Shown here piece after piece: positions 18,294-42,188 of a stretch of 64,000 bases of DNA. The DNA is from Candidatus Woesearchaeota archaeon (GTDB taxonomy: Archaea; Nanobdellota; Nanobdellia; Woesearchaeales; GCA-023898365). Within the stretch, counting starts at the first letter, position 1; each line of letters begins with the position of its first letter. The stretch spans positions 133,743-197,742 of the forward strand of contig CP060219.1 of NCBI GenBank assembly GCA_023898365.1, written 5' to 3'. The position numbers and the translations under genes are program-made. The notes under the pieces are model-generated. The model saw only the letters and a program-made list of their open reading frames with translations. It was not told the DNA's origin and searched no databases.

Positions 18294-20267
18294 ATGAAAC
18301 AAGTTATTATGCTCATGACGTTGGTTGTTGTGCTTCTCTCATACGGAGTCATTGCAAGCCAAGGCGATCAGCACAGAACTGATCCAGACATCTCATTTAT
18401 TGCAGTGCTCGACGATGTGGCAAGCACACAAAGCACAACAGGAACACTTACTATTACCACTACGGGCGAAGCGACCTTTATTGTAACGCTTTCCGCGGGA
18501 ACACTTGAAGGAGCCTGCACCATTAGTGACATTTCTCTCTCACAAGAAGAATTTACCTTTGTGAATGCAAGCACAGAAGAAGTCAATATCAGCGTTTCCT
18601 TACCAGCATGTGCTGCCCGAGGAAACTACACGGGACACTTGTATGCTGACGTTGACATTACAACTAATGAAACTGGCTACATCTACACAGACAACATCTC
18701 AGTAACACTCGAAGTCCTTAATCGAGCACCAGTTATTCAAGCCATTGCAGACATAACTAACCAATCTGGAAGTGCGTTTAGCATGCAAGTTGAAGCATCA
18801 GACGTTGACGGAGATGACTTAACCTATTCACTGAGCGGCACCACCGCATTAAGTATTAATCAAGAGGGACTTCTTGTCGGCACAGTTCCAGAAGGAGCAA
18901 CCACCATCGAAGTGCAAGTAAGTGACGGCACTGTTAGCGTCAGCGACACCTTCGTGTTAACCGGCACGTACCAAGGTAAACGCTTACAAACAAGCACCGC
19001 AACTCTCTTTGTTGGGGGCCCAAGCCAAGACAGAGAAACGAACTTGAGTTTCAGTTTTACCTTAAGCAACACCGGCACAGAAACCATTACGAATTTGCTA
19101 TACGGAAACAATATTGACAGCGAATATGCATTTGCATTTACGAGTGGTCCTAGCTCTCTTGCCCCAGGAGCTCAAGCTCTAGTCACAGGATATATCTACA
19201 TTCCTGACTCTAAAGACTCTGAGCGAGAACAAATCGGCATCATTGCCATAGGAGACGAAACATCAATTCTTGTCACACTCCCAGTCGATATGCAAGCAGT
19301 TTCTGAAGCAGAAATTAAGAAGCTTAAAGTGGAAACCTCACTTGAAGAAGACACCAGCGTGCAAGATGATGAGAAAGTAAAAGCACGTATCGGAGACGAA
19401 GTGACAGTCACCATCACTGTTAAAAATAAATTTAATGAAAATATTGACTTCGAAGACATCACCATTACACTTATCAGCGAAGACTTAAATGATCTCGACG
19501 AAGAAGATAGTTTTGGCGACACCATCAGAGACGGCAAAGATGAAACATTCACCATGACCTTTGACATCGATGAAGATCAAAATGATGGCGAAAACAGAGT
19601 GACTGTTCTTGTTGAAGCTGAAGATGAAAATGGAGCCATCCACACTGTCGAGCAAGACTTCATTATTGATATTAATCAAGAAGATGAAGATTATCGTATT
19701 GATGGATTCACTTTGACGCCACTTACTGTGCAGTGCGGTGGAACGATGACGGTTCGCGCAGATATTGACAATATTGGTGCAGATGATGTTGATCGCGGCA
19801 TGGTTATTTTCAGTGTTGCAGATTTGAATATTGAGCGAGTCAACAACGATGTAAGCATTGATTTTGATGACTCAGACACCATCACGTTCAGTGTTCCAAT
19901 CCCTGCAAACGCTGCGCCAGGATCATATCTTGCAGAAGTTTCAGCATATATCGGCCTTGATCGAGATGATGATTTAACCGATTCTGAAGCAACACAATTT
20001 ATTGTGACGTGCAATGATGATCAGACGTCAACAAACAACAATAACAACCAACAGACGCAAGGAAACACCGGAAACTCAGGCATTGTCTTATTAGATCAAG
20101 ATAATGAAGCATTACAAGAGCTTGTCGGCGTTAGTGCAACAGGAACAGAAAGAAAGGACGCGTCAAGTGGCATTGACACAACAGAAGTGATTCTCTTCGC
20201 TCTTGTTGTTTTAATGATCATTGTGATCTTGCTTCTAGCTGTTAATCTTATGCGTCAAAAAAAGTAG
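18294..20267 (+). CDS. Surface protein with cadherin-like/He_PIG-like module, acidic repeats and C-terminal TM anchor
   Basis: 657 aa. Signal 'VIMLMTLVVVLLSYGVIA'. Module 'NRAPVIQAIADITNQSGSAFSMQVEASDVDGDDLTYSLSG'. C-terminal 'VILFALVVLMIIVILLLAVNLMRQKK'. Confidence 0.75.
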   Translation: MKQVIMLMTLVVVLLSYGVIASQGDQHRTDPDISFIAVLDDVASTQSTTGTLTITTTGEATFIVTLSAGTLEGACTISDISLSQEEFTFVNASTEEVNISVSLPACAARGNYTGHLYADVDITTNETGYIYTDNISVTLEVLNRAPVIQAIADITNQSGSAFSMQVEASDVDGDDLTYSLSGTTALSINQEGLLVGTVPEGATTIEVQVSDGTVSVSDTFVLTGTYQGKRLQTSTATLFVGGPSQDRETNLSFSFTLSNTGTETITNLLYGNNIDSEYAFAFTSGPSSLAPGAQALVTGYIYIPDSKDSEREQIGIIAIGDETSILVTLPVDMQAVSEAEIKKLKVETSLEEDTSVQDDEKVKARIGDEVTVTITVKNKFNENIDFEDITITLISEDLNDLDEEDSFGDTIRDGKDETFTMTFDIDEDQNDGENRVTVLVEAEDENGAIHTVEQDFIIDINQEDEDYRIDGFTLTPLTVQCGGTMTVRADIDNIGADDVDRGMVIFSVADLNIERVNNDVSIDFDDSDTITFSVPIPANAAPGSYLAEVSAYIGLDRDDDLTDSEATQFIVTCNDDQTSTNNNNNQQTQGNTGNSGIVLLDQDNEALQELVGVSATGTERKDASSGIDTTEVILFALVVLMIIVILLLAVNLMRQKK

Positions 20268-20284
20268 GGTTGATTGTAAGCAGA

Positions 20285-20316
20285 TTTTTTTTTAATTTTT
20301 TTCTTTCTCTTTCTTT
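20285..20316 (+). terminator. T-rich terminator tract
   Basis: T9 and T7 runs begin about 18 nt after the stop at 20267. Confidence 0.35.
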
Positions 20317-20376
20317 TTGTTCCAGCCCTTACAGAACAAAACACTTATATACACGATTCGTCCTTTTTTTCTCAGA

Positions 20377-21879
20377 ATGGTGTTGTCGCAGAAAATTCTG
20401 CTTGGCCTCATCGCTGTTGTGAGCGTTACGTGTGTGTATCTTCTTATCGAAATAGTTTTTACGCCAACACTTACTGCTCATGTAATTACTGCATATGGCG
20501 GAGAAATAACCCAGATGAATGTCCATCTTGACACCGTGTATCAAAATGATTGGTGGTTTGCAGTCTATGGCAACATTACGAACACCACAAACAGCACAAA
20601 TATGACTACAAATTCTGCATCAAATGTTGTTGGCGCGACATTATATGTTAATTGGACGGCGTTTTTTGATAATCTTACTGAAGACCGGTATACTAATCTT
20701 AACTTATTTGCTTCAACGCATGAGAATCCAGATCTTACAAATCTTTGGCCCGTTCACCCCGCATGGGCAGATGTGCTTGTGTATGGATTTAACTGGCAAG
20801 ATGGTCGCTCAAATATGGGAACGTTTACCACGTTTCATGATTTCACCATAAACAGTCAGCTTCGTTCCTTATATAGCACGCGCACCAACAGCGTTGAAGG
20901 AGAGTATTGGGTGGGCATTGCGCGCGATGCAACAAACAATAAACCAGTCTTTGTAACTGAGATTGTAAATGGATCGGGATTTGATGGATCTCATGCAGAC
21001 TTCCAATTGATTCTTCCGGTCAACAGTACAAACATTACCTACTACTTTTCTTTTGCAAAAAAAATAGATGCTCTCTTGAATTGCACTGAAGACTTTGAAC
21101 TTAACGCCTCATTACTCGATGATAATCAGACGGTTCAGCTTAATTGGACAAATGTTACAGGAGCTACAAGTTATACGCTTTCTGTGCTTACGGGAAATGT
21201 AACAACCGCTCCTGATTTCAGAAATGCAACGAACAACTCGCTTGCAAACCCTTGGTTTACGTACGTTGATACAGGAACAGAAACTACCTTCTTTCAAGTG
21301 ACCGCCCATAAAGGCATTCAGTCATGCACCTATAACAACACGCTGGCAGGAATCTACAATATCAACACCTACGAAGGTCTCAATCTGGTAAGTGTTCCCG
21401 TCATTCCTGTTGATCCTACAATCGAAGAAGTGTTTAAGACCATTGATGAGTTATATGTTACCATTAATGAATATGACAACTCCATTCAAGATTATCATTT
21501 TTATATTCGTGTTGGCGGTTTTGTTTTTCAAGACTTTTACACCATCAATAAGGACTTTGGCTATTGGATGCTAACAGAAAATGCTGATGGCGTAGCTACA
21601 GTTGTTGGAGCAGTCACGCAACAAAAGAATGAAGCGTTACTCCCAGGAGTTAGCCTTGTCGTGTTCCCAACTCCTCCTGACGAAAATCACACCGTAGAAA
21701 ATAGATTTTCATCAGTGTTTCCAAATCTTTCTACTATTAACGAATATGAGAACAGCATCCACGATTATCACTTTTACATTCTTGTTTCAGGATTTGTGTT
21801 TCAAGACTTTTACAACGCGATTCCAACGAGAGGTTATTGGACGGTACTTACTGGTGCAGACACCATGGTGATTTCATGA
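20377..21879 (+). CDS. Sequon-rich surface protein with an internally duplicated C-terminal module
   Basis: The maximal ORF starts with TTG at 20317; the ATG at 20377 gives the signal-anchor 'MVLSQKILLGLIAVVSVTCVYLLI'. It has many N-x-S/T sequons. It contains two copies of 'INEY[DE]NSI[QH]DYHFYI.V.GFVFQDFY'. Confidence 0.7.
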   Translation: MVLSQKILLGLIAVVSVTCVYLLIEIVFTPTLTAHVITAYGGEITQMNVHLDTVYQNDWWFAVYGNITNTTNSTNMTTNSASNVVGATLYVNWTAFFDNLTEDRYTNLNLFASTHENPDLTNLWPVHPAWADVLVYGFNWQDGRSNMGTFTTFHDFTINSQLRSLYSTRTNSVEGEYWVGIARDATNNKPVFVTEIVNGSGFDGSHADFQLILPVNSTNITYYFSFAKKIDALLNCTEDFELNASLLDDNQTVQLNWTNVTGATSYTLSVLTGNVTTAPDFRNATNNSLANPWFTYVDTGTETTFFQVTAHKGIQSCTYNNTLAGIYNINTYEGLNLVSVPVIPVDPTIEEVFKTIDELYVTINEYDNSIQDYHFYIRVGGFVFQDFYTINKDFGYWMLTENADGVATVVGAVTQQKNEALLPGVSLVVFPTPPDENHTVENRFSSVFPNLSTINEYENSIHDYHFYILVSGFVFQDFYNAIPTRGYWTVLTGADTMVIS

Positions 21880-22526
21880 AAACAATACTAGGCGCGATCT
21901 TATTTTTGCTATTTGTTGCAAGTAGCTTTGCATTTCTTCCCACACCGTTTAATATTGTTGGCACCTATTCTCCTGGCCAAACAGTCACCATCCAACTTGA
22001 AAGTGGGAATCAATTGTTCGAGAAAGAATTCGTTGTGAACGCTGAAGGGTATTATGCGGGCGTTATCTCACTTCCCAGCCAAGAAGATGTTTCAGTGCTT
22101 GTTCGCAATAGTGCAGGAGATATTATTTTTGAAAATGAGGATGTTAATCCATGGAATATGCACATATGGTATTTTGAAAACGGTAATGTTCGTGATGAAT
22201 CCATTCCTGTTGAAAAACCAATTGTTGACTCCTATTTTGTTGACGTAACAGCTCTTGCTCGAGAAACAGACCCCTCGAAACCTTCTCAGGAAACAAATGC
22301 ACTGCGTGATCAATACGCATTCGATATATCTGAACCTCCCGAGGAACTCCTGCAAGAACAGGATCCAACATTCATCATCAAGGGAAGTGCAGAGCACGTT
22401 TCAGGGTATAGTGACAAGACACCGTATTTGTTCATCGTTCTTCTTCTCTTTTTGCTTCTCTTAGTAAACACCTATATCAAGGACCGAGCAACTCCTTCTG
22501 AATTGTTTGAAGATAGATCTAACTAG
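21876..22526 (+). CDS. Hypothetical type I membrane protein
   Basis: The ATG at 21876 overlaps the upstream stop (ATGA). Signal 'MKTILGAILFLLFVASSFA'. C-terminal TM 'YLFIVLLLFLLLLV'. Confidence 0.6.
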   Translation: MKTILGAILFLLFVASSFAFLPTPFNIVGTYSPGQTVTIQLESGNQLFEKEFVVNAEGYYAGVISLPSQEDVSVLVRNSAGDIIFENEDVNPWNMHIWYFENGNVRDESIPVEKPIVDSYFVDVTALARETDPSKPSQETNALRDQYAFDISEPPEELLQEQDPTFIIKGSAEHVSGYSDKTPYLFIVLLLFLLLLVNTYIKDRATPSELFEDRSN

Positions 22527-22694: not shown

Positions 22695-23246
22695 ATGAAA
22701 TTAACTAGCACGAAGACACTGCCCGTGCTCCTCTCCTTATTTGAATCATTCTCCTTCACACAAACAAGTATCCACGAAGCAACAGGCGTATCTCTTGGTC
22801 GCATCAACGCCATCCTCAAATGGCTTATCGACAAAGAAATCGTGATAAAAATGACAGGAACCTACGAACTCACTCAACCCAATCGGCTTGCAGAACTCAT
22901 CGCGACCGAACTCTCACTAAAAAAGCAACAATCATTCTACATCGACCTACCAAAAAAAGAAGCGCTAGAACTTGTTAGACAAACAAAAGCACAACTGTGT
23001 TCATTTAGCCTCGCAGGCGCATTCAAAAAAGAACTAGACACACCAGAAATCCATGCATTTGGAAATGAAAAATTAACAGCAAAACTCAAAACAATCCCTC
23101 GAGGAGAACACAAACTAAATCTCTACGAACCAAACAATCTCTCATCAGAAGAAACATTCACGTCACTTGTCATACAATTCTCAATCCTAGGACAAACCAA
23201 ACTCCTTGAAAAACAAATACTAACAAAATGGAAAACACTCCAATAA
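22695..23246 (+). CDS. Putative winged-helix transcriptional regulator
   Basis: 183 aa. The N-terminal 'FTQTSIHEATGVSLGRINAILKWLIDKEIVIKMTGTYELT' has an HTH-plus-wing pattern. It overlaps the downstream giant gene by 19 nt. Confidence 0.5.
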   Translation: MKLTSTKTLPVLLSLFESFSFTQTSIHEATGVSLGRINAILKWLIDKEIVIKMTGTYELTQPNRLAELIATELSLKKQQSFYIDLPKKEALELVRQTKAQLCSFSLAGAFKKELDTPEIHAFGNEKLTAKLKTIPRGEHKLNLYEPNNLSSEETFTSLVIQFSILGQTKLLEKQILTKWKTLQ

Positions 23247-26200
23247 AAAAAGAGGTGAACCGCGAGAGTGTTCTTGCACTACTCCTACTTCTAGTTCTCA
23301 CACTCCCTTCAATAACTGCACTCCCACTTAACTATGGAGGAAGCGTCATGGGAGAATGCCGCGAGTTTGCCATAGTCAACATGTCATTTTTCTCATCAGG
23401 AAATGTAGGCAATCCCGCGTTCAGGCTAGGAAGTCAATTAGCGTATGCCAACAGCGTAGGTGTCTTTGGAAATGCGACCTCCTACAACGAAATAACAAAT
23501 CCAACCGTGGACGTCCAATTTCGAGTAACAAACCCCTCCTGTAGCGCAAGCGCAACAGGAACAAACACCTCAACAGGACATAACCTTGCTAATCCAGCCA
23601 TATTCAACGTATTAAGTACAAACCCTGTAAGCCTTATTACCCCAATAAATGGCAATGCGCAAACAACAAATCTTACGGTCTTCGATTGGACGCACACGCA
23701 TCCAACCGCATCATACATGCTTCTTATCAGCAACACCACTAACTTCGCAGTACTTGAAAGAAATATTACGGGCATAGCAGCAACCACCTATACCTTCAAC
23801 AGTTCTGAAGCACTTAATGACGGCACGTATTATTGGCGCATCATGACCTACAACAGAACAGAATACATGGCAACTTCAAGCTACGCATCCTGGCAAGTAG
23901 CAGCAGGAGCCGCATCACTTACCAGTATCACCCCCGCAAATACCTCCTGGCAATCAAGCACCACTATTAGTGCAACCGTTATCACTAACATTCCAGCGAC
24001 ATGCGCCTATTCCCAAACATCAGGAAGTTATGCAAGTAAGACGCCCATGTCAAACACGGGTGGAACAACACACACTACCACGCTTACTGCATATCAAGAA
24101 GGAAGAAATTATTTCTACTTTCAATGTAACACCTCGGTTGTTAGTCAAGAACGAACCCATTACTTCCTCGTCGACACCACCGCTCCCGATAGAACTGCTG
24201 CAGTCCTTCACATAGAAAATGATGCAACATACACAAACGACACCACCCTTAGTCTTAACTGGTCAGGATTCAGTGACGGAACAAACGGAAGCGGCATTAA
24301 TCGCTATTACTATTCATTTACCAATTCGGGAGGAAGCGCAATTGGAACCTGGACAGGATTTACCACGATAACACTTGCAGGAGCAACGGAAGGAACCGAA
24401 CAAGTTTATGTGTGGGCAAGGGACGCTGCGGGAAACATAGGACTTGCAGCAACAGATTCCATCATAGTTGACACGACTCCCCCATCCATGGGAAGCTGGA
24501 GTACGAGTCCCGCCGACTTAACAAAGTACTCAACAGGAAGCTTCACAGTGACGGTCACCATTACCGATTCGACGCCCCTCAACGGACTTCCCCAATTCAG
24601 GTATAGAGTTGGAAATGATACCTACAGCGCATATGCTGCCACAACCAGCCTTGGCAGCGACAGATATCGATTCTCAATACCTGAAGGCAGCGGTGCAAAT
24701 TCGTGGTGGAACAGGGCAGGAGACTACGTGTACTACGACGTTATTGCGTACGATACTTTTAATGAGTTAACTAATCTTACCAGAAGTGAATTTATTAACA
24801 ATCAAACAACAGCACCGGTCTTTCACAGCATAAGCGCAAAAAGTATGCTTGAAGACACGACCCTTACCTTTAACTTAACAGGAGTTGACGTTGATTTTAA
24901 TTATCTGACGTACGGCATTGTTACCAACACAACAGACCTTGATTACACCATCACCGCAATCAACGCCACGAGAAGTAGCGTAAGCATCAGTGCAGAAAAT
25001 GATGATGTTGGAACGCACACCTTGCAATTTTATGTTACTGACCAAATCTATACGATTTATCGCAACGTCACCCTTACCGTTATCAACGTCAATGATGCGC
25101 CCGTTCTTTCATCAATTGGAAACCTCGTAGGTTACCAAGGAGCTTATTTCAATCTAACGCTTAACGCATCAGATGTGGATGATACCACACTCATCTTCTC
25201 ATCAAACTCAACTTTTTTTAGCGTTAATCCAATAACTGGTCACTTCGGATTCACGCCGCTCGCATCAAACAGAGGAGTACACTCACTTGTCTTTCGTGTT
25301 CGTGATGGCAGCAATGCAGAAGATAACGAGACCGTGACGTTCACTGTAAATTACTGCGGCAACAATATTTGCGAAGCAGCTTATGAAACCTGCGGTCGCT
25401 GCGCTGTAGATTGTGGGGTGTGCGGTGATGAAGAATCCAAAGCCCTCCTTATTGAACCAGTAAACTGCGTCAATAAAACAATGACAATAGAAGTTGCAAA
25501 ACTTGTCGAGCGAGGAACTTGCTATCCACGAGGAGAAATTATTCGCAACATGGAAGTATGTGGAAGAATCGCAAGCGAAACCATATCAGTCAGTGTCTAC
25601 GATGAAGATGTCTGGGTGGAACTTGAAGAAGTAACAAGCGACGTTACTGGCGCAATCAGTTGGACACCAACAGAAGTAGGACTGCACAAACTCTCCTTTT
25701 CATCAGGAAGTTATGAAGAAGTCGAATTTACCACAAACTATTGCGGCAAAGAAGAAACTAGTTCGAGCGTTACGCAAACAAGTGATGAAGAAACAGACAA
25801 TACGAAAAAAAACACAGGATCAGACGCGACTTCGCCAACCGCCCCTGATAGGAACGCTTCGCTTGATGGAAACAGCAGATGGTTCTGGTGGACATTATTT
25901 ACCATCTTATTCTTACTTGCGGCCTATCGCATCATAAAACTTGCCTACATTAATTTGGTGCGATCAAACAAAACAAACATATTTGTCAAGTCAGTGGATT
26001 GGTTAATCAAGCTCTACTTCCTTGCAAGCATTCAAACAAACCAATTCCTTGACGATAATCCAAAAGTAAAACATCAAGTGAAAAAGATGAAACGAGCTTT
26101 GCACACAGGAATTGAGTTTTCTGCAGCACTCGCTGCCTCGCTTAAAGCAAGACTTAACTTATTTACTAAAGTCAATGTGCCCTTTTTTGCCATGAATGGA

Positions 26201-26572
26201 GAAGGAGAAGCATCTCTTCTTGTCGCCATATCATTAATGAAAATGAACAGCAAGGATTCGCTTGGCACTTTGTTCGACCGTCTCGGAGGAGCAAAAGTGC
26301 ACACTCTCCAAGCATTATGCGCCACACTTCGCGCACAAGGCATTAATGCCATGTTACGTACAGGAACACTGATCGACATCAAGACAGGTATTGACATGAA
26401 CGAAGCATGCGTTCTTGACAATGGTAAAACAAGACTTATCATCATGGGATATGATACGAATGTTGTCTATGCCCACGACTACGAAAACGGCATCAAATGC
26501 AGGAAAATACCTGATGACGATCTTGAGCGCAATTGGAATGGCGCATTCATTGCAGTAAAAAAAAGAAGGTAG
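23228..26572 (+). CDS. Giant sequon-rich adhesin-like protein with cadherin-like modules, a Cys-rich knot, a TM helix and a cytoplasmic C39-like domain
   Basis: 1114 aa. Signal 'VLALLLLLVLTLPSITA'. Modules 'NDAPVLSSIGNLVGYQGAYFNLTLNASDVDDTTLIFSS' and 'TTAPVFHSISAK...VDVDFNYLTYG'. Cys-rich 'CGNNICEAAYETCGRCAVDCGVCG'. TM 'WFWWTLFTILFLLAAYRII'. About 215 aa of C-terminal tail follow the TM. Confidence 0.8.
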   Translation: MENTPIKKEVNRESVLALLLLLVLTLPSITALPLNYGGSVMGECREFAIVNMSFFSSGNVGNPAFRLGSQLAYANSVGVFGNATSYNEITNPTVDVQFRVTNPSCSASATGTNTSTGHNLANPAIFNVLSTNPVSLITPINGNAQTTNLTVFDWTHTHPTASYMLLISNTTNFAVLERNITGIAATTYTFNSSEALNDGTYYWRIMTYNRTEYMATSSYASWQVAAGAASLTSITPANTSWQSSTTISATVITNIPATCAYSQTSGSYASKTPMSNTGGTTHTTTLTAYQEGRNYFYFQCNTSVVSQERTHYFLVDTTAPDRTAAVLHIENDATYTNDTTLSLNWSGFSDGTNGSGINRYYYSFTNSGGSAIGTWTGFTTITLAGATEGTEQVYVWARDAAGNIGLAATDSIIVDTTPPSMGSWSTSPADLTKYSTGSFTVTVTITDSTPLNGLPQFRYRVGNDTYSAYAATTSLGSDRYRFSIPEGSGANSWWNRAGDYVYYDVIAYDTFNELTNLTRSEFINNQTTAPVFHSISAKSMLEDTTLTFNLTGVDVDFNYLTYGIVTNTTDLDYTITAINATRSSVSISAENDDVGTHTLQFYVTDQIYTIYRNVTLTVINVNDAPVLSSIGNLVGYQGAYFNLTLNASDVDDTTLIFSSNSTFFSVNPITGHFGFTPLASNRGVHSLVFRVRDGSNAEDNETVTFTVNYCGNNICEAAYETCGRCAVDCGVCGDEESKALLIEPVNCVNKTMTIEVAKLVERGTCYPRGEIIRNMEVCGRIASETISVSVYDEDVWVELEEVTSDVTGAISWTPTEVGLHKLSFSSGSYEEVEFTTNYCGKEETSSSVTQTSDEETDNTKKNTGSDATSPTAPDRNASLDGNSRWFWWTLFTILFLLAAYRIIKLAYINLVRSNKTNIFVKSVDWLIKLYFLASIQTNQFLDDNPKVKHQVKKMKRALHTGIEFSAALAASLKARLNLFTKVNVPFFAMNGEGEASLLVAISLMKMNSKDSLGTLFDRLGGAKVHTLQALCATLRAQGINAMLRTGTLIDIKTGIDMNEACVLDNGKTRLIIMGYDTNVVYAHDYENGIKCRKIPDDDLERNWNGAFIAVKKRR

Positions 26573-32266: not shown

Positions 32267-33832
32267 TCAATGTTCATTCCTACAATTACTCGAACAACCA
32301 TCACCATCTCTCCAATTGCCATCATCACATTCTTCCGAGTCTTCTCGTATGCCATTACCGCACCATCGCGGCAAGGAAATTGATGAATGAACACAATATA
32401 GCCGATATTCATTTTCACAAGTTTTTTTCTCACCAGTATCAGTCCACTTAAAGTTAGTGCTTGTCGAATCACCTACTATTCCAAGCTGAGAAGATTTGGT
32501 CCAGACATCGCAATTATCTCCAAAGAGAAATCCGTGCCTGAGACCAGTCCACACAAAATCTGAAACTGTATGTCCGTATTCATCATACATGATTGGAAAG
32601 TAAAGATCATAAAGGCCTAAATCTTGAAAACTATCGGCAACAAGGGTTGCGTTTGCACTTTCATTTGCTGAACGGACATAATACTCAACTCCGCTGTCAG
32701 GAATAGCTATATGACTCAACACGCCAACACGAGGCATCGCGCCTAACCAGGCAATCCATGCCCCTTGACCGATTGTTATTCCGTCAGAATTTTTTGCTAA
32801 ATAATTACAAATAGCATCAGCAGCAAGTAGTTCGTTTGCTTCTTCAGGACTATTTATCATGTTCTTTGTGTAGGGATTAATCAAACCAACGGCATAATTT
32901 AAAAACTTCCCTCCTTCATAGATTTGGCTTGTTACAAAAACATTTGAATAATACTTACATTTCGCATTACAATAATCACCACCATTATCAATGCCGTCGT
33001 CGCATTGTTCGCCATATTCTTGCCCGCCTAAAGTCACATTTCCTATTTGAGCATCACCGCAGAAGAGAGGAGAATCAATTCGTACATTGCCACAGGTTGC
33101 GTTGCAGTAATAACAAGCACTGCCATATGGTGGAGGAACGCAGAGTTGACCGTTTCCTGCGCCATCGTCGCATACTTCTCCTGGTTCTGCAAATCCATTT
33201 CCGCAGGACGTGAAGCATTGTGAAATGTCAAGTTGACAATTCGCTGTGCATTGCATCGTCCCTCCTTCATAATATCCTTGCGAGAGGCAAGTTGCGCCTC
33301 CTAAACTTGCACCATCACATTGTTCGCCAGTCTCAATTATGCCATTGCCGCATTCAGCGCCAAGTGCTTGTTCAACTTCTCTTGCGGCAACTTCTGTAAC
33401 GATAGTACCAAGCGCGTCGTATTCTATTCCAGATCCTGAACTTAATAAATAGGTGAAGTTAAGTGTGAGAATTACTGTTGTTCCGGGAGCAAATTCTTTG
33501 TTGAGATCAAATCGTGTTTGACGAGATTCGGAAGGATTAAGAACCAGAGGTGTTGAAAACTCTTGTGTGGCTGATGAAAATTCGAGAATGCGTACACTTG
33601 TTATATTTACCGGACGCGCAACTTCATTTCGAAAGTTTATTGCAAACAAGCCGCTTTCGGTGAGAAGCGCATCTTCACAGGCAAAGGTTGACCCAAGATC
33701 ACAAACCCGTTGCGTAATAACAGTTGGTTCAAATATGGTTGAGGAAAGCAAGAAGCCAACTCCTCCAAGGACTATGAGAAGAGTGAGAGAATAAAAAACA
33801 ATGGTTTCAATTGCCGCAGCACGATGATTCAT
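32267..33832 (-). CDS. Secreted protein with Myxococcus-type cysteine-rich repeats and a C-type-lectin/DUF1554-like module
   Basis: 521 aa. Repeats 'CGNGIIETGEQCDG', 'CGNGFAEPGEVCDDG', 'GEQCDDGIDNGGDYCNAKC', 'CGNGIREDSEECDDGNWRDGDGCSSNC'. Central region 'VFVTSQIYEGG...ADAICN...VWTG...CDVWT...YRLYCV'. Confidence 0.75.
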   Translation of the reverse strand: MNHRAAAIETIVFYSLTLLIVLGGVGFLLSSTIFEPTVITQRVCDLGSTFACEDALLTESGLFAINFRNEVARPVNITSVRILEFSSATQEFSTPLVLNPSESRQTRFDLNKEFAPGTTVILTLNFTYLLSSGSGIEYDALGTIVTEVAAREVEQALGAECGNGIIETGEQCDGASLGGATCLSQGYYEGGTMQCTANCQLDISQCFTSCGNGFAEPGEVCDDGAGNGQLCVPPPYGSACYYCNATCGNVRIDSPLFCGDAQIGNVTLGGQEYGEQCDDGIDNGGDYCNAKCKYYSNVFVTSQIYEGGKFLNYAVGLINPYTKNMINSPEEANELLAADAICNYLAKNSDGITIGQGAWIAWLGAMPRVGVLSHIAIPDSGVEYYVRSANESANATLVADSFQDLGLYDLYFPIMYDEYGHTVSDFVWTGLRHGFLFGDNCDVWTKSSQLGIVGDSTSTNFKWTDTGEKKTCENEYRLYCVHSSISLPRWCGNGIREDSEECDDGNWRDGDGCSSNCRNEH

Positions 33833-35169: not shown

Positions 35170-37032
35170 TTATTGCTTTTTAACCTTCTGTTTTAACCGA
35201 GCAATCATGTCTTCGCTTTGTTTAATCCGCTCATAGCGCTGTTGACGAAGAGCATCTTCCTGAGAAGCAAAAGTGGCCTGCGCTGCAACCACCTCTTTTT
35301 TTGCAAGGTCATCAATAGGAGGGGCAGCACCACCACCCGATCTCGAAGAAGAAATGTGAGATTTCAACGCCTTCGTTCGTTCATGCATCTGCTTAAGTGA
35401 TCGCACTTGTTTTCGTTTAGAGGAAGAAAAATAATTTGCAGGAAGCAAATAGACAAGGAGAAACAAAATAACTGATGCAAGACCAACCAATTCAAACCAA
35501 TGAATGGCAAGTAGGGCGATGCGAGACTCGATGATATTTACTAACAAAATTGTGGAACGCACAGAAGACATAGGAACTCCAAAAACACTCGGCAACGTAT
35601 TTAACACATCTTCAGAATCAGTAACATAAGAAGTGATCCACGATTCACCCTGATCGATACGATCAACCACCCAAACACCCTTCTTGGTGAACGGTTGAGA
35701 AATCTCTCTAAATTCAGCAGACTCCGGAATCAACTCTTTAACAACAAGATCTTCCAACGGACTTTCTCCCAAATTCAACAAATTAAGTGTGACGCGAATC
35801 TCATCTTGCGTAATGTACGCGACACTCTTTTGCACGAAGAGTTTTTTCTCAGGAATATATTGGCGAATGAACGGCAATGACGAGCTATACACCCTGTTTT
35901 TCCCATAAACAAATTCTCCAGCAGGGAAAAAATCAACACCTAACGAATCTTCATCAACATATTTGATCGCGTATTCGACCCGTTTTGACTTTCGAGGATT
36001 TAACGACATATCCCACGTAAGTGTTGAACCATCAGCATTCTTTGTTCCTTCGCCCGTATCAATAATTTCAAAACCCGAAGGAATCTCATCAGTGAGTTTT
36101 CCTGAAACAAGAAGCGGATCAAAATTATTCAAAATAAGTTTGACGTCAATAACGTCTCCTGGTAAGACTTGTGTTGAAGAAACAGTTTTTCTTAAAAACA
36201 CATTATTCAAAAGGAAGCTATTAAAGAACACATCTCGTCCAGTCCCATTTACTGAGGCATTCAAACTGTAATTAATCAAATCATCTTCAGTAAAGAGAGA
36301 AATATTGTTTGTTCTATTATACACGAACTGAGAGGCATCAAGAAACACGTCCGCTTGAAGCCAATAAATCTCCCCTTCGACCACTTCTTCATCGAAAAAA
36401 TCCTTCGCGTAAAATTCGCCAGGGCCAATTTGAGTAACCTCTCCTGTAAAATCCCACGATTCGAGTTCACGCGTAATATCCAAATCAGATGTTTTCGTCA
36501 CTTTAAATAAATCAAGTGTTAAATTAAAACTTGTTGGATTCTCAAAATGAACACTGATTAATCTTCTATCACGGCCAGTGATTGCTTCAACTTCTGGTTC
36601 GTTTTTGAGAAGTTGACCGAACACATCAGTGTAGACTTCGGGTTCTTCTTGGAAGATGCCACCTGCAAGAATAGGTTCCCCATCAACAATAGGATTAATC
36701 GACGTAATACCCAAAATATTGTAACTGAGTGAAATTGAGCTTTGCGGTTCAATACTAAAAATTATCAATCCTTGCGACGTCATCAATTGACCTGAAGAAG
36801 TTGCATTAGAGCGAAGTTCAAGACCAAACAAATTATACGGTATGTTAAGATTGTTAAGCGTGACTTCTTCTTGGTTATATATAGTGATTACTCCATCAAC
36901 ATTGACAACATAAAAATCATCGTAGAAACTTGTAATCTTGCCCGATTCGACAATATCAAAGACTATAGTACCTGCCGTTGCAAAAGGAAGGAGAAAAATG
37001 GCAAGAGTGAAAAAAAGAACAAACCATTTCAT
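35170..37032 (-). CDS. Type I membrane surface protein with two DUF11/CARDB-like modules and a cytoplasmic coiled-coil tail
   Basis: 620 aa. Signal 'FVLFFTLAIFLLPFATA'. Modules 'LPGDVIDVKLILNNFDPLLVSGKLTDEIPSGFEII' and 'IRVTLNLLNLGESPLEDLVVKELIPESAEF'. TM 'VGLASVILFLLVYLL'. Confidence 0.7.
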   Translation of the reverse strand: MKWFVLFFTLAIFLLPFATAGTIVFDIVESGKITSFYDDFYVVNVDGVITIYNQEEVTLNNLNIPYNLFGLELRSNATSSGQLMTSQGLIIFSIEPQSSISLSYNILGITSINPIVDGEPILAGGIFQEEPEVYTDVFGQLLKNEPEVEAITGRDRRLISVHFENPTSFNLTLDLFKVTKTSDLDITRELESWDFTGEVTQIGPGEFYAKDFFDEEVVEGEIYWLQADVFLDASQFVYNRTNNISLFTEDDLINYSLNASVNGTGRDVFFNSFLLNNVFLRKTVSSTQVLPGDVIDVKLILNNFDPLLVSGKLTDEIPSGFEIIDTGEGTKNADGSTLTWDMSLNPRKSKRVEYAIKYVDEDSLGVDFFPAGEFVYGKNRVYSSSLPFIRQYIPEKKLFVQKSVAYITQDEIRVTLNLLNLGESPLEDLVVKELIPESAEFREISQPFTKKGVWVVDRIDQGESWITSYVTDSEDVLNTLPSVFGVPMSSVRSTILLVNIIESRIALLAIHWFELVGLASVILFLLVYLLPANYFSSSKRKQVRSLKQMHERTKALKSHISSSRSGGGAAPPIDDLAKKEVVAAQATFASQEDALRQQRYERIKQSEDMIARLKQKVKKQ

Positions 37033-37739
37033 TCTGCACCCTTCTTTCGAAACGTAAAAACTGTTTTACCTAAGACGAGCACGATAACAATCAACCAAAA
37101 GATGTTTACCGCCCTAATCTTATCGTTTCTAAAGAAGGGAATAATCGAGTATTCAAAACTCAAACGCTCAGTTGGACCCCATTCGAGCAAAGTTGATGAG
37201 CCTTCTGAAGAAACAAGGGCATCAGGGGCGAACGTTACATGATATTTCTTTGGCAAGACAAACGAGGTCGTCTCAACTTTCCGTGGAATGGTAGTGTGCT
37301 CAGCAGGAATATCAATGCCATAGAATAAGATGCCTCGAGGCTTAAAATCTAACCAGTACGTCATAGTCACATCATAATAAAATTGTGGCAAAAGAGGATC
37401 CCAAATGGTAAACACAAGATCGGTAAAATCTGTTCCGGGAACAATCTTAGTATCTAGTCGTTGATCAAATTTGTTTTTTACGACAAATTCTGAGGCGCCA
37501 ATTGATTCTTCACGATCACCACCACTTACTAACTTTGAAAGTTTGAAATGAATCTCACCAGGAATAATAGGATTGTCGCCAACATTCTTGAGGCGAATTT
37601 CTTTTTGTACAAGAATTTTTCCATCTTCTAAAGAGTAAGTGGTTTGATAATTATCAAAAACAACAACTTCAGCAGAAACTTGAGATAGAGTGATAAGTAG
37701 GGAGAATAACAAAACCAGTAACGTAATTGATGTTCTCAC
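37029..37739 (-). CDS. Type I membrane protein, beta-rich ectodomain
   Basis: 236 aa with a GTG start. Signal 'ITLLVLLFSLLITLSQVSA' and C-terminal TM 'IFWLIVIVLVLG'. ATGA overlap with the 620-aa gene. Confidence 0.65.
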   Translation of the reverse strand: MRTSITLLVLLFSLLITLSQVSAEVVVFDNYQTTYSLEDGKILVQKEIRLKNVGDNPIIPGEIHFKLSKLVSGGDREESIGASEFVVKNKFDQRLDTKIVPGTDFTDLVFTIWDPLLPQFYYDVTMTYWLDFKPRGILFYGIDIPAEHTTIPRKVETTSFVLPKKYHVTFAPDALVSSEGSSTLLEWGPTERLSFEYSIIPFFRNDKIRAVNIFWLIVIVLVLGKTVFTFRKKGAE

Positions 37740-37794
37740 GGAACTTTACACCCCCAAAGTTGAAAAAATGAAAATAAAAAAAAATTGGAAGAAC

Positions 37795-39639
37795 CTATTT
37801 GTACTTCCTTAGCTTATGATTGATCTGCCTAGTCATCAACACGTTTGCTACATTGATCGCGATCAAAAACACCACGAGGCCAACATAGAACAATTCTCTT
37901 GTTCGCGTGCCAAGGACCGATCTCATCAAAATAGCTTCCGAACCACCAGCTCCATCAACTTTACGAGGGTCCAATCCTACAATGTAAAGTTCAGACGCAC
38001 GATAGTCACCGGATCCGTTTACCCAGTAACTCACATTCCAAGTCCTGTTATTGTATGACTCACTGATTGGACCAAGAGATGAGTTGTAAGGATTCTTCAA
38101 TGGAATATTCCATTGATGAGTCGTACCGTTAAACTCGGTGTTGGTAACGTTGGCGGACGCGTCTGGCGTTCTACTATACGTATAGTTGAATGGCGTGAAT
38201 TCTGAAGGCACGAAGTCGTAGACCGTGACCACTAAGTGTTGTGGCGTCCAGTCATTTCCAATGTTTTCAACTAAGATGTCAATGCGATATTGATCTTCGT
38301 ATGTTGAAACAACATCCTTATGCACTTCAAGCCAGTAGCCATTTACCACGTAGATGTACTTCATATAATAATCGTTGCCATTTCTCGTATATGTCGAGTT
38401 TAAAATTTGATTATAGGCGTTGATTATGTTGAAGTAAGGCAACATCCACACAACAGGTGGTGGAGAAGTTACCGGATCACTTCCGTCGGTAAAGTTAAAT
38501 TCCCATGCAGTGCTTAAGTAACCTGTTGACAAGTTGATTTCTTGATTTGGATACACCGTTGAGTTGAGTAATCCAAAGTCAGTCGTTCGGTTCGTCATAT
38601 TAAGCGTTGTTGTAACCCACATAGATAATTTTGTCAAGCGGTAAGCAATGTTAATTGGCGTGGTAACATTAGACCGCGCTTCCCACGTCACATTTGTATT
38701 GTTCTCATTATCTGCAGGCTGCACAATTCTTTTTGTTAAGTGATCATGTGCTTGCGCAGAAGCAATAACTGAATCTAAAGAGAGGTTAGATGCTAAATAG
38801 GAAATATTGTATCTAAGCGTCTCAGTGATTGCCTTGTACGTATCTGACGTTGGAACATTGTTTGGCGCAGTCACATTGTACTGAATCCAGACAGTTTCGC
38901 CAGGAACTAAGGTTCCTGCACTCGCTTGCCAATACCAACTCGTGTTACTTGTTCCATTCCCGTGGAGATTAGCAAAATCTCCAAGCTCGTAGAGTTCGTC
39001 AAGAGAGAACAAACTGTTTGTTCCATTCCATAAAATACCATTAACTTGGATAGAAATATTAATATCATTTACATTCTGGCCGACAGCTAAAACGTTGCTT
39101 GCTGATTGATTAACTTGCCAAGTGTGACCAGCAAGAACCTTCCTGTTAAATCCATGTTCGACATTTCCATAAGAAGTGTTAATATCTAATGGTGGTTGAA
39201 CTGAACCACAAGACATATTATAGTTAAACGTTGAAAAATTTCCTGCTCGAAGTTGAGGAATATGAACTTGAAAGACATCTCCTGGAGCAGAACCAAGAGT
39301 TTGCGAACCGTATCTTCCTGCAATGAGTGTGAAATTCGTACTCATTGTGTCCGTGTTCGAGAAGTTAATATAGATATCATCTACCGTGTCCGGACTTGGA
39401 TTAGTCACGTTGAGAATTCCAATGATCTCACATGTTGTCGTTGATTCCGTTAAATAAAAATTTTCTGCGTAGGTAACATTCTGATTGACTGTTTCAACCA
39501 ATGAAATGTTAATCCTTGTCGGAAGCGCTGAAGCCACCGACATAAATAGCAATCCTAACACTAAGAGAAAAATAGCTCGTCTCACCTTGGTCACCTTTGT
39601 ATATCTTTGAAAACGAATAGTTTCATGCGAGCAACACAC
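37795..39639 (-). CDS. Heavily sequon-decorated type I membrane surface protein
   Basis: 614 aa with about 30 N-x-S/T sequons counted by eye. Signal 'AIFLLVLGLLFMSVASA' and C-terminal TM 'LFYVGLVVFLIAINVANVLM'. An alternative GTG start at 39585 has GGTGA upstream. Confidence 0.7.
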   Translation of the reverse strand: MCCSHETIRFQRYTKVTKVRRAIFLLVLGLLFMSVASALPTRINISLVETVNQNVTYAENFYLTESTTTCEIIGILNVTNPSPDTVDDIYINFSNTDTMSTNFTLIAGRYGSQTLGSAPGDVFQVHIPQLRAGNFSTFNYNMSCGSVQPPLDINTSYGNVEHGFNRKVLAGHTWQVNQSASNVLAVGQNVNDINISIQVNGILWNGTNSLFSLDELYELGDFANLHGNGTSNTSWYWQASAGTLVPGETVWIQYNVTAPNNVPTSDTYKAITETLRYNISYLASNLSLDSVIASAQAHDHLTKRIVQPADNENNTNVTWEARSNVTTPINIAYRLTKLSMWVTTTLNMTNRTTDFGLLNSTVYPNQEINLSTGYLSTAWEFNFTDGSDPVTSPPPVVWMLPYFNIINAYNQILNSTYTRNGNDYYMKYIYVVNGYWLEVHKDVVSTYEDQYRIDILVENIGNDWTPQHLVVTVYDFVPSEFTPFNYTYSRTPDASANVTNTEFNGTTHQWNIPLKNPYNSSLGPISESYNNRTWNVSYWVNGSGDYRASELYIVGLDPRKVDGAGGSEAILMRSVLGTRTRELFYVGLVVFLIAINVANVLMTRQINHKLRKYK

Positions 39640-39870
39640 CCTTGAAACCCACAGAGCTAAAAACCGAAGTTTTCATATATAAATGTTTCGAAAAAATGTC
39701 TGTTAGAATAGAAAAATCTGACATTTTTTGTTAGCACGTTTGAAGAGTAACGAAAAACTATGTAAAAAAATATTCAACAAAAACTTCTGCTTGAGAACAG
39801 TCACTAACATCACGTTCTATGACTGCATCTATAGCAAGACTTATAAAGTGGATTTATCCAAAATAGGTTC

Positions 39871-40800
39871 ATGGTTCATAGGAAACCAGCTGGTCCAAAA
39901 GGACTTGGGCTAGTTGTTATACTTTTCACGCTCTTCTTCTTAGTGGCAGTAATCCCTTTCACAACAAGCATTAGCGTTAATCCACAAGAAACAATAATTG
40001 AGCGGATTGACCAAGAAAATATCATTCGCATCAGCATCATCAATAATGATGTTGAAGTCCAAAACATTCAACTGCAAACGAGTCAAGAATCAAAGTATCT
40101 TGACAGACATTTTTCTATCAACCCAACATTATTCGGTCTTTCACCTGGCGAAACAAAAGTTATTGAAGTGCAACCAACAGACTTACTTTCTGTAACACCC
40201 GAAAAACATCATTTTTCCTTATTAGTAATCAGTGTTGACGAAGAAAATCAAGAGCAAACAATTAGTGGCGCAATCACCATTTATTTTACCAAAGAAGGAG
40301 ATCAACAACCTTCTCTTCATTTTGACAAACTTACCGTGGTGAGTTCTTCACCAGAAGAAATTGTTTACAGTGTAGATCTTCTTAACAATGGCAACATAAA
40401 TGATTGGATTAAGCCACGCGTTTCTTTATTTGACGAATCAAGAAATGAGGTGTTCTCTACAACGTATAAAAAACCATTTCTTCTTGAACCAAGCCAATCA
40501 ACGACTTTGACTCTCCCTCAGCAATTTAGTAGATTAGAAAGAGGAACCTATACACTTCGTGTTCAGATGATTTACAACGAAAATCTCTCCTCGCCGCTTC
40601 GAGAAGCGCAAATTACTATTAACCAAGAACGTGCAAGGACAACAGAAGGAAACGATTACTCAATCCCTCTGGTCATCTCTCTAGGTGTGCTCGGACTCTT
40701 AGGATTCATCTTGTATCGATACCGAGAATACATAAAAATCAAAGAAGAGCTTGAAAAAAAGCACAGCAACAAAGAAGGAACAAACACGAAGAAAAAATGA
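39871..40800 (+). CDS. Membrane-anchored protein with two Ig-like-looking beta modules; possible class III-like N-terminus
   Basis: 309 aa. N-terminus 'MVHRKPAGPKGLGLVVILFTLFFLVAVIPF'. C-terminal TM 'IPLVISLGVLGLLGFILY' with a Lys-rich tail. Confidence 0.65.
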   Translation: MVHRKPAGPKGLGLVVILFTLFFLVAVIPFTTSISVNPQETIIERIDQENIIRISIINNDVEVQNIQLQTSQESKYLDRHFSINPTLFGLSPGETKVIEVQPTDLLSVTPEKHHFSLLVISVDEENQEQTISGAITIYFTKEGDQQPSLHFDKLTVVSSSPEEIVYSVDLLNNGNINDWIKPRVSLFDESRNEVFSTTYKKPFLLEPSQSTTLTLPQQFSRLERGTYTLRVQMIYNENLSSPLREAQITINQERARTTEGNDYSIPLVISLGVLGLLGFILYRYREYIKIKEELEKKHSNKEGTNTKKK

Positions 40801-42188
40801 AACGCGTAATTATTTTCATTTCTGTTGCGATAGTGATTTCGCTTATCTTCCTCTTTCCAAAACAAAGTGATGGATGCGATTGCGCAGGATCATTACTCTC
40901 AAAAGAAACCTTATGTCTTGGCATTCCTCTTTGTCAGGAAACGATTGTGGCGGCTCCAGAAAAAGAACCAACAGCTATTGATCAAACAACCAGTATTCCA
41001 AACAGTAGCAATACGACTTCCGTACTGCAGAACTCCACTATCAGTAATACCACAAATCAAAATCAGTCGCAAGCTGTTGAGCTAGTCACTGAGAACCCTG
41101 TTTCCACTTCATCCAACACAAGTTCAAATGAATCACTGGTGTGTTCCGCTGATTGCGCAACAATTCGTGAACTGCTCAAAGCAACAGAGCTTGGCACGTA
41201 CGAACAATTTTCAAATTACACGTATAGTAACAATGAGCGAGAAGCAATTGTGCTTGCCATCGACACGTCTGAAAGCATGCAGCGTAGAATCGGACATGCA
41301 AAAGAAGCAGCAAAACAACTTATCGATCTCATCGGCTATGAAGATAGCGTTCTCATTCTCTCATTTGATCAAGAAACAAAAATTTCGTATGGGTTTACGA
41401 ACGACAAAACAGTGCTCAAGAGCCAAATCGATGCATTGACGGTAGGTCTTGGCACTGACGGGTATGAGTTATTTAGAAAAACAAATCTTGTCTTAAACAC
41501 ATTTGACGCGCCAGTAAAAAAACTCATCGTTATTACTGATGGTATTTTTTGGGATGATGGCACAAACCAAACTGCAATTGAAGCTGCACAAGCCACGTAC
41601 TGCATAAATATTATTACTCAAGGTGTTGATATCCTCAAGGATAAAAACAAAGAAAAGCGGATCAAGAATCTAGTAAATGCATGTGGCAGTTATTATTACA
41701 GCCCAGAAACCCCTGAAGAATTGTTTACTCTTATGAATTTGATTTATCACGAAATTGAAGAAGGGTCAAACGAGTTATCCCTTCGCATCAAACTATCACA
41801 TGACCTGGTTGCAAAAAATGAAAATGTAACCATTTCTAGTCTTGCATTCTCCTCATACACAGGCATGGTCTTGCCGTTTTCAAACGACGCATACTGTATT
41901 GAAGCGCCCATTATTACTCTAAATACAAAGGAGTTGTCGACGAAAGGGAGCTGGCAAGAACTATCAACCAACGATCTTATTCCAGGAGAAAACATTCTTG
42001 TTTTACATGCCAAGATCCCCGGATGCAATATTGTAGGTTCAAAAGAATTTGAAGTTATCGTACAGCGAAACAAAGATTATGATTTCCTCACCGTTCTATT
42101 CATTCTCCTTCTGGTTGGGAGCAGCAGTTATTTCTTTATCAAACCAAAACATGTTCGCGCAGTTAAGTTGTTCTTCGGGTTTAAATAA
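40797..42188 (+). CDS. von Willebrand factor A domain membrane protein
   Basis: 463 aa. MIDAS 'AIDTSESM', '...GLGTDG...' and 'IVITDG'. TM helices at both the N- and C-terminus. 4-nt overlap with the upstream gene. Confidence 0.8.
   Translation: MKRVIIFISVAIVISLIFLFPKQSDGCDCAGSLLSKETLCLGIPLCQETIVAAPEKEPTAIDQTTSIPNSSNTTSVLQNSTISNTTNQNQSQAVELVTENPVSTSSNTSSNESLVCSADCATIRELLKATELGTYEQFSNYTYSNNEREAIVLAIDTSESMQRRIGHAKEAAKQLIDLIGYEDSVLILSFDQETKISYGFTNDKTVLKSQIDALTVGLGTDGYELFRKTNLVLNTFDAPVKKLIVITDGIFWDDGTNQTAIEAAQATYCINIITQGVDILKDKNKEKRIKNLVNACGSYYYSPETPEELFTLMNLIYHEIEEGSNELSLRIKLSHDLVAKNENVTISSLAFSSYTGMVLPFSNDAYCIEAPIITLNTKELSTKGSWQELSTNDLIPGENILVLHAKIPGCNIVGSKEFEVIVQRNKDYDFLTVLFILLLVGSSSYFFIKPKHVRAVKLFFGFK

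Follow-up and report, generated by a model that had tools for sequence, protein, structure and literature searches.

A C39-like, probably inactive domain as the predicted cytoplasmic tail of a large surface protein in a woesearchaeal archaeon

To our knowledge, nearly all known C39 peptidase domains and C39-like domains (CLDs) either form the N-terminal module of a bacterial ABC exporter or are stand-alone bacterial proteins. The active C39 domains of the PCAT/AMS type (LahT150, PDB 6MPZ; ComA, 3K8U/5XE8; PCAT1, 4RY2) are joined to an ABC transporter and possess the Cys, His and Gln of the active site. The CLD of HlyB, from the RTX/T1SS ABC exporters (PDB 3ZUA, 8DCK), is N-terminal in its ABC transporter and keeps the His within a degenerate catalytic centre. 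Where the active site of a CLD is degenerate, the domain binds its substrate and does not cleave it (PMC8277102). Peptidase_C39_2 and DUF3335 proteins, both of which Pfam describes as 'Peptidase_C39 like family', stand alone with Cys and His intact, as in the Bacillus anthracis protein 3ERV and in a YvpB-like protein encoded at metagenomic locus L003, which may lie outside the cell since it has a hydrophobic N-terminal stretch.

The domain described here differs from each of these. Compared with the HlyB CLD, with which it shares ~11% sequence identity, it has the C39 fold and likewise a degenerate catalytic centre, but no T1SS ABC architecture, being C-terminal on a single-pass archaeal surface protein and having lost both Cys and His. 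Unlike the PCAT/AMS domains, it lacks Cys, His and Gln, has no PF03412 match and is not joined to an ABC transporter; Pfam detects no ABC domain anywhere in the 1114-aa protein, which is thus not an N-terminal ABC-exporter fusion. In contrast to the Peptidase_C39_2 and DUF3335 proteins, this domain and its orthologues fall under the Pfam gathering thresholds and have lost both catalytic residues. Our literature searches returned no description of this architecture, and the domain is in a previously undescribed position for a C39-like fold.

The gene lies in a stretch of 64,000 nucleotides from a Candidatus Woesearchaeota archaeon, referred to here as the window. The ORF at 23228..26572 (+) encodes a 1114-aa protein of four parts, namely a signal peptide, an ectodomain, one transmembrane (TM) helix and a basic tail. 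The features are as follows.

22695..23246, + strand: 183-aa protein with an N-terminal winged helix (wHTH), upstream of the surface-protein gene and overlapping its start by 19 nt
23228..26572, + strand: surface-protein gene, encoding a 1114-aa type-I membrane protein (USN45691.1, hypothetical protein, Candidatus Woesearchaeota MAG)
23228..23320, + strand: signal-peptide-like N-terminus, aa 1-31, from a hydropathy scan; basic n-region, Leu-rich core (aa 14-32), then 'ITA|LP', the presumed cleavage site
23321..25879, + strand: ectodomain, aa 32-884; beta-sandwich, with Ig-like and cadherin-like repeats, a Ser/Thr-rich stalk and 26 N-x-S/T sequons
25880..25948, + strand: single TM helix, aa 885-907; Kyte-Doolittle windows exceed 1.5 only here and at the N-terminus, with positive-inside flanks in 7/7 relatives
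25949..26182, + strand: juxtamembrane cytoplasmic linker, aa 908-985; lysine-rich, poorly conserved, two long predicted helices
26183..26569, + strand: predicted C39-like (papain-fold) pseudo-peptidase domain, aa 986-1114

The original prediction had placed a C39-like domain at 26183-26569 of a 1114-aa adhesin; this interval corresponds to aa 986-1114, and all of the strings it quoted are present in the protein. The label 'adhesin' would follow from the Ig-like and cadherin-like repeats. In the ectodomain, Pfam places Big_9 over its cut-off and gives weak matches to Cadherin_5 and Big_13, and NCBIfam gives sub-threshold matches to the tandem-95 repeat and an OmpL47-type barrel. A Cys-rich module at aa ~709-732 has invariant Cys columns in the orthologue alignment, in which the signal-peptide-like N-terminus is also conserved. 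The tail that follows the TM helix is basic and 207 aa long. It begins with the linker, whose helices are predicted at aa ~918-943 and 945-976 (AF2 secondary structure, pLDDT ~60-82) and which is 15-16% identical to its orthologues, and its last ~130 aa form the C39-like domain, with helix alpha1 at aa 994-1007 and a five-strand antiparallel sheet at aa 1059-1111. An antisense ORF at 26074-26445 was taken as spurious because the + frame is conserved at the protein level.

The search for the same fusion in other genomes that had been proposed with the original prediction identified five full-length orthologues (P0123-P0127; 32-37% identity, 96-98% coverage). They come from independent metagenomes and have the same order of signal peptide, ectodomain, TM helix, linker and domain. 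Identity to the orthologues is 21-28% in the C39-like domain versus 35-42% in the ectodomain. A sixth relative, the 960-aa protein P0128, is encoded by a gene internal to its contig and has a tail of just 46 aa, so the C39-like module is dispensable in some relatives. Searches with the tail itself returned little. An exhaustive phmmer search over 1.84 billion representatives gave only the protein itself and P0002, which was discarded as a false positive because it is a translated tandem repeat in which 14 weak repeats sum. A word-indexed search for homologues of the 240-aa tail gave no match and is uninformative, since this search seems to return only proteins about as long as the query; a ComA query, for instance, yielded short fragments only. 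No match came from scans of genome contigs, whether the full protein or the tail alignment was used, nor from a scan of viral contigs. A metagenome scan found no further tail-bearing genes and yielded two loci only, both encoding genuine C39 proteins, a PCAT (L002) and the YvpB-like protein (L003). There is no paralogue of the tail within the window (tblastn), and NCBIfam and PADLOC returned nothing for it. The divergent C39-like tail family is confined to a small DPANN lineage.

We used hhalign to compare the window tail with a 32-sequence ComA-type C39 profile and obtained a score of 26.0, a value reached by 0 of 400 composition-preserving shuffles of the tail (mean 13.1, sd 2.4, maximum 23.3). 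The HH probability of the window tail alone was 9-14%. Pfam hmmscan at E<=10 gave no C39 match on this tail, PF13529 and PF11814 included, and the window tail alone produced nothing above any curated threshold and no PDB match. In the PDB, phmmer matched DotZ at E = 0.06, which we set aside as a chance hit. As judged from these comparisons, the C39 likeness of the window tail by itself is beyond chance, yet not significant. The signal reaches significance when orthologues are added. Against 177,635 PDB sequences, a profile built from the six tails had 3erv_A, a 'putative C39-like peptidase', as its best match (E = 1.1e-5, 28.3 bits) and its sole match under E = 0.8, which relates the tails significantly to a structurally characterised member of the Peptidase_C39_2/DUF3335 group. 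Likewise, hhalign aligned the six-tail profile with ComA-type C39 over 127 columns (probability 58%, E = 9.6e-5). The orthologue tails have concordant sub-threshold Pfam matches to DUF3335 (PF11814) and Peptidase_C39_2 (PF13529), with 13.7-20.3 bits against gathering cut-offs of 24-25; the best scores are both those of P0126 (DUF3335, 20.3 bits, cut-off 25; C39_2, 16.6 bits, cut-off 24). No PF03412 match at E<=10 was found for the window protein, its tail or any of the six tails. The structure prediction that had been suggested for the tail was run as a template-free AF2 model from the six-sequence alignment, with a pLDDT of 79.7 overall and 80-92 in the domain; the model from the single sequence had a pLDDT of 43 and was unusable. 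The domain has the papain-like alpha+beta fold of the ComA, LahT and PCAT1 peptidase domains while remaining under the PF03412 gathering threshold. Thus, the C39-like papain fold originally claimed from a by-eye alignment is supported by the 3erv_A match, the sub-threshold Pfam matches and hhalign.

The side of the membrane on which this tail lies was assessed from sequons and charge. Of the 27 sequons in the 1114-aa protein, 26 precede the TM helix, and among the relatives the ectodomain has 2.5-3.5 sequons per 100 aa and the tail 0-0.8. In 7 relatives the flank that follows the TM helix carries a net positive charge and the one that precedes it a negative or neutral charge. In all relatives, K+R make up 14-21% of the tail versus 4-5% of the ectodomain. 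By hydropathy, charge and sequon counts, the 7 relatives match a type-I (N-out, C-in) single-pass protein, and sequon density and the positive-inside rule predict a cytoplasmic tail in all seven relatives examined. The cytoplasmic placement of the domain in the original prediction agrees with this distribution of sequons, the positive tail-side flank and the basic tails; its single TM helix is also borne out, aa 885-907 being the one hydrophobic helix besides the N-terminal core. The surface protein is also predicted to be glycosylated, with a glycosylation-rich ectodomain.

The positions that bear on catalysis are listed below.

26207..26215, + strand: E994-A995-S996, N-terminus of alpha1, the site of the nucleophilic Cys in C39 enzymes (hhalign, column table, AF2 helix start)
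26408..26410, + strand: C1061, an invariant Cys in a beta-strand, aligned with the core Phe that true C39 enzymes have in their 'PFIAHV' strand
26429..26431, + strand: T1068, the catalytic His site (ComA H96) in four concordant alignments
26474..26479, + strand: H1083-D1084, of which D1084 is the catalytic Asp site (ComA D112)
26534..26536, + strand: W1103, an invariant residue matching the Trp that is invariant in the C39 'F...W.G' motif (ComA W131)

ComA C17 aligns with E994 or S996, depending on the hhalign alignment, and the column table contains no Cys within aa 985-1010 in any of the six orthologues. The original prediction was therefore right about the loss of the Cys and differs slightly in giving Ala at its position, which falls at E994-S996 depending on the alignment. 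Its statement that the His is not conserved also holds, with the exact site moved to T1068, one residue before the implied R1069. The alignments that equate T1068 with the His are those to the ComA profile, to 3ERV, to the YvpB-like L003 protein and to the L002 PCAT, and across the six orthologues this position reads T/A/T/S/S/S, the Ala being that of P0123. The catalytic Asp is the one PF03412 catalytic residue of the three that is present (D1084; Asp in 5/6 orthologues and Asn in one), and the oxyanion Gln is not conserved among the six (column table). The invariant residues of the tails are L998, K1005, L1034, C1061, D1076, Y1081, H1083 and W1103, and the motifs 'FDKN..Y.HD' and 'F.K.W' are kept. 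H1083 is peculiar to this tail family. Since C1061 matches the core Phe of the 'PFIAHV' strand, its role is probably structural. With no Cys at the start of alpha1 in any orthologue and no His at its site, the residue pattern suggests that the domain is, as originally proposed, probably catalytically dead.

An alternative is that the tail has kept enzymatic activity by means of a rewired active site, composed either of H1083-D1084 and the Ser/Thr at 1068 or of C1061 and H1083. Such a site would catalyse cleavage or transfer, acting either on a substrate in the cytoplasm or on the tail of its own protein. The invariance of C1061, H1083, Y1081 and D1076, the Asp at 1084 in 5/6 orthologues, the Ser or Thr at 1068 in 5/6, and the location of these residues on the three adjacent strands that bear His and Asp in true C39 enzymes would fit such a site. 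However, P0123 has Ala at 1068, C1061 aligns with a buried core residue in a strand and is not at a helix N-terminus, the oxyanion Gln is not conserved, and H1083 and D1084 are neighbours on one strand, such that their side chains should face opposite ways. We regard this reading as improbable. It is also unlikely, if slightly less so, that the tail is a decaying remnant of a captured and fused C39_2-type gene that now serves as generic cytoplasmic bulk or a spacer. Such decay would be consistent with the faster evolution of the tail (15-28% identity, versus 35-42% for the ectodomain), with the loss of catalytic residues, with P0128, which is without the domain, and with a family so small that the tail search over 1.84 billion representatives recovered only itself. 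Against it, the open frame, the eight invariant residues, both motifs and a confidently predicted compact fold persist in six lineages whose identity has fallen to ~20%, a pattern that indicates purifying selection on a folded domain.

Two further readings are very improbable. One is that the C39 likeness arose by chance, in a tail that is in fact an orphan alpha/beta domain of unrelated origin. The window sequence taken alone, with neither a Pfam nor a PDB match, its low HH probability and the poor single-sequence AF2 model, is what such a domain would give, but the chance reading is effectively refuted. The other, which is equally hard to credit, is that the protein has an inverted topology, or that the domain is extracellular in the manner of secreted YvpB or 3ERV-type C39_2 proteins. 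3ERV and the L003 protein, which are closest to the tail in sequence, are indeed of the C39_2 type, and the latter may be outside the cell. Nevertheless, a signal peptide and one TM helix put the C-terminus inside, the positive-inside bias, sequon depletion and lysine-rich tail recur in 7/7 relatives, and the invariant Cys-rich module precedes the TM helix.

We therefore consider it likely that aa 986-1114 form a highly diverged clan CA C39-like pseudo-peptidase that is cytoplasmic and most likely a docking module. Because the nucleophilic Cys and the general-base His are lost, the domain would be a pseudo-peptidase that probably binds a partner instead of cutting it. Docking of a peptide or partner is proposed by analogy with the HlyB-type non-catalytic C39-like domains and with the groove that receives the leader peptide in LahT, ComA and PCAT1. 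In this model, the domain would be tethered beneath the single TM helix by the ~75-aa linker of two predicted long helices and would bind a cytoplasmic peptide or protein, thereby coupling the Ig/cadherin-like receptor part to the cell interior.

The partner could be the wHTH protein, whose gene overlaps the start codon of the surface gene and which appears to be the best candidate for binding to the C39-like tail. This protein has concordant sub-threshold matches to TrmB, HTH_24, HTH_45, HTH_Crp_2 and MarR_EPS. Its orthologues (31-36% identity) lie directly upstream of the surface gene with the same kind of start overlap at L005, L006 and L008, and at L009 a C-terminal fragment of the wHTH gene overlaps the surface gene in this way. 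The wHTH gene is absent beside P0127, although P0127 has the C39-like domain. The C-terminal 'WGTxQ' of the wHTH protein was considered as a peptide ligand of the domain and set aside; it would coincide with the ribosome-binding region of the next gene and with that gene's start, which could account for its conservation. A bolder proposal, which we regard as improbable, is that the surface protein, its pseudo-peptidase tail and the translationally coupled wHTH protein constitute a one-pass transmembrane signalling pair of DPANN archaea. In this pair, the regulator would be kept at the membrane by the pseudo-peptidase, much as an anti-sigma factor holds a sigma factor, and be set free when the Ig/cadherin-like ectodomain meets a ligand or a host.

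As a methodological example, this domain is missed by single-sequence searches and is visible only after orthologues have been found via the ectodomain. A C39 fold, predicted to be dead, would here form the intracellular end of a large surface protein of a DPANN archaeon with a reduced genome, and this tail is conserved in a small family, where a winged-helix gene usually accompanies it. DPANN surface proteins are believed to mediate attachment to hosts, and a folded cytoplasmic domain on such a protein offers a handle on the question of how the outside is linked to the inside. If the signalling pair were true, it would represent a contact-sensing route in an episymbiotic archaeon, made from a recycled protease fold.

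The C39-like domain lies at the end of a 1114-amino acid surface protein, and the strings quoted for it in the original prediction are all found in the translation of that protein. The features concerned are listed here.

22695-23246, + strand: 183-amino acid gene with an N-terminal winged helix, sharing 19 nt with the start of the surface-protein gene
23228-26572, + strand: surface-protein open reading frame (1114 amino acids), with the finding at its 3' end
26183-26569, + strand: C39-like domain (residues 986-1114), at the 3' end of the surface-protein open reading frame

The identical public protein is USN45691.1 ('hypothetical protein H6502_01000'), from a 1.13-Mb contig of a Candidatus Woesearchaeota MAG, and the genes around the open reading frame are archaeal (exosome subunits, Rpb6, archaeal-type LeuRS, TGT). 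The 123-amino acid antisense open reading frame that overlaps the C39-like domain (26074-26445, - strand) is probably spurious, since the + frame is conserved at the protein level in orthologues. The hydropathy profile has no hydrophobic segment other than a signal-peptide-like core (residues 14-32) and a TM helix (residues 885-907). The ectodomain has Ig-like and cadherin-like repeats, with Pfam Big_9 exceeding its cut-off, and a Cys-rich module that is invariant in the orthologue alignment. The Cys positions of the motif 'YCGNNICEAAYETCGRCAVDCGVCG' (25352-25423, residues 709-732) are invariant in all relatives, and a neighbouring 521-amino acid protein (32267-33832) carries a related DUF4215 Cys-rich repeat. 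The TM helix is followed by a lysine-rich tail of 207 residues, in which two long helices (residues ~918-943 and 945-976) are predicted, with moderate confidence and poor conservation, ahead of the C39-like domain.

Using the window sequence alone, hmmscan of the tail (E<=10) gave no C39-type match in Pfam, and phmmer against PDB sequences returned only DotZ (E = 0.06), which we rejected as chance. Exhaustive phmmer of 1.84 billion representatives with the tail returned only its own protein and a junk repeat open reading frame (P0002, E = 7e-20); the latter is a 1714-amino acid translation of tandem repeats in which 14 weak repeat matches are summed, a false positive of a type that recurs in such searches. 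Sub-domain-query negatives of the word-indexed homologue search are uninformative because it returns only proteins of about query length: the tail query missed its 1114-amino acid parent, and the ComA domain retrieved short fragments. A single-sequence AF2 model of the tail was unusable (pLDDT 43). We then have the hhalign comparison of the tail with a profile of 32 ComA-type C39 sequences, all annotated with PF03412, which essentially recovered the alignment originally made by eye, with a score of 26 and a probability of only 9-14%. None of 400 shuffled tails reached 26 (mean 13.1, sd 2.4, maximum 23.3). This score is suggestive for one pre-stated hypothesis and would not be significant in a search of an entire family database.

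Querying with the full-length protein yielded five full-length orthologues (P0123-P0127; 1146-1176 amino acids, 32-37% identity, 96-98% query coverage), all with the same order of signal peptide, ectodomain, TM helix and tail. When a profile of the six tails was searched against all PDB sequences with hmmsearch, 3erv_A, a 'putative C39-like peptidase', was matched with E = 1.1e-5, the runner-up having E = 0.8. The same alignment matched the ComA-type profile in hhalign over 127 columns, the entire domain (probability 58%, E = 9.6e-5), and in template-free AF2 gave a model with pLDDT 79.7 and pTM 0.62 (80-92 for residues ~987-1114), whose Foldseek list consists mostly of C39 and CLD entries. 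Pfam marks DUF3335 in three orthologue tails and Peptidase_C39_2 in one, both 'Peptidase_C39 like family', at 13.7-20.3 bits, where the gathering cut-offs are 24-25. When the four closest tails were used in a motif-driven scan of metagenomes, only two loci came back, a PCAT N-terminal C39 domain and a YvpB-like C39_2 protein; thus, the sequences nearest to the tails belong to genuine C39 proteins. Together these results bear out the predicted C39-like fold, and we regard a chance similarity, to which the searches with the window sequence alone would correspond, as very improbable. P0123-P0126 have a ~23-residue insertion ('...PMYLKALLLKGLTYKGK') in the helical lobe (alignment columns ~172-194), which maps between residues 1044 and 1045 and is missing from the window protein and P0127.

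Four independent alignments (with the ComA profile, 3ERV, the YvpB-like protein and PCAT) place T1068 at the catalytic His (ComA H96). The column reads T/A/T/S/S/S across the six tails, in agreement with the original statement that this His is not conserved. The nucleophilic Cys is expected where helix alpha1 begins (residue 994 in the AF2 model), and no orthologue has a Cys in residues 985-1010. The catalytic Cys is therefore missing, as had been proposed; the original prediction put Ala in its place, and the alignments give E994 or S996. The third catalytic residue is retained as D1084 (Asn in one orthologue). Given the loss of the Cys and His equivalents, the domain is best described as a pseudo-peptidase.

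All six tails have L998, K1005, L1034, C1061, D1076, Y1081, H1083 and W1103 in common, and H1083 is specific to this family. C1061 is probably structural, since it aligns with a core Phe of the 'PFIAHV' strand in true C39 enzymes. We consider an active site rewired around an invariant His, Asp or Cys quite unlikely. That the tail is a drifting remnant, a reading with which its identity of only 18-24% between the orthologues and the window protein is consistent, also seems unlikely; the motifs 'V(I/V)VYGFDKN.(F/V)Y.HD' and 'F.K.W' are kept. An extracellular domain is highly improbable. In the 1114-amino acid protein, 26 of the 27 N-x-S/T sequons precede the TM helix. In this protein and six relatives, sequons number 2.5-3.5 per 100 residues outside versus 0-0.8 in the tail, and the net charge turns from negative or neutral directly before the TM helix to positive directly after it. 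Their K+R content is 14-21% in the tail, or 29% in the short one of P0128, and 4-5% in the ectodomain. Archaeal N-glycosylation is extracellular; by the positive-inside rule and the confinement of sequons mostly to the ectodomain, the tail is thus cytoplasmic, where the domain had been placed originally.

Directly upstream (18294-22526, + strand) are three more predicted surface or membrane proteins of 657, 520 and 229 amino acids, rich in sequons. The 657- and 229-amino acid proteins end in a TM helix and a short basic tail only, in contrast to the 207-residue tail of the 1114-amino acid protein, with which the former has one Ig-like repeat in common (tblastn E = 6e-6). About 9 kb downstream, a cluster at 35170-42188 encodes DUF11/CLIPPER-like (620 amino acids), 236-, 614- and 309-amino acid and VWA (463 amino acids) proteins. 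At three metagenome loci (L004, L006, L008) a similar series, matched by the lengths of its genes and by its Pfam marks (CLIPPER, AF2028_C, VWA) rather than by protein alignment, directly adjoins the surface-gene orthologues; LeuRS, TGT and others intervene in the window. The cluster may be a conserved cell-surface module.

We assign the domain to the C39-like group of clan CA, on the basis of its fold and the database-significant sequence link to 3ERV; it scores below the curated thresholds of PF03412, PF13529 and PF11814, and two of three catalytic residues are absent. HlyB-type CLDs have another residue in place of the Cys and bind substrate rather than cleaving it (PMC8277102). The likeness to such exporter domains noted in the original prediction holds in that the Cys is lost in both, but the window domain is the more degenerate pseudo-peptidase because its His is lost as well. 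In the part of the literature covered, we came across no account of an archaeal surface protein whose C-terminal cytoplasmic tail is a C39-like domain.

The tail-bearing family is small. P0128, a more distant relative of 960 amino acids with 29-31% identity, shares the ectodomain and TM helix, and its tail has just 46 residues. Since its gene (L007, 397-3279) is internal to its contig, the C39-like module is, judging from these sequences, an accessory addition that is missing in some lineages. The gene upstream of P0128 is different. Orthologues of the winged-helix gene likewise overlap the start of the surface gene in L005, L006 and L008 (L009 has a fragment), and none was found beside the P0127 gene. 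Several wHTH families match the 183-amino acid protein concordantly, all sub-threshold, and its C-terminal ~120 residues have no match in Pfam or the PDB. We propose that the C39-like domain would act as a cytoplasmic, membrane-tethered, non-catalytic docking module for a peptide or protein, and that it may couple the extracellular receptor part to a cytoplasmic partner, the most obvious candidate for which would be the co-encoded winged-helix protein.
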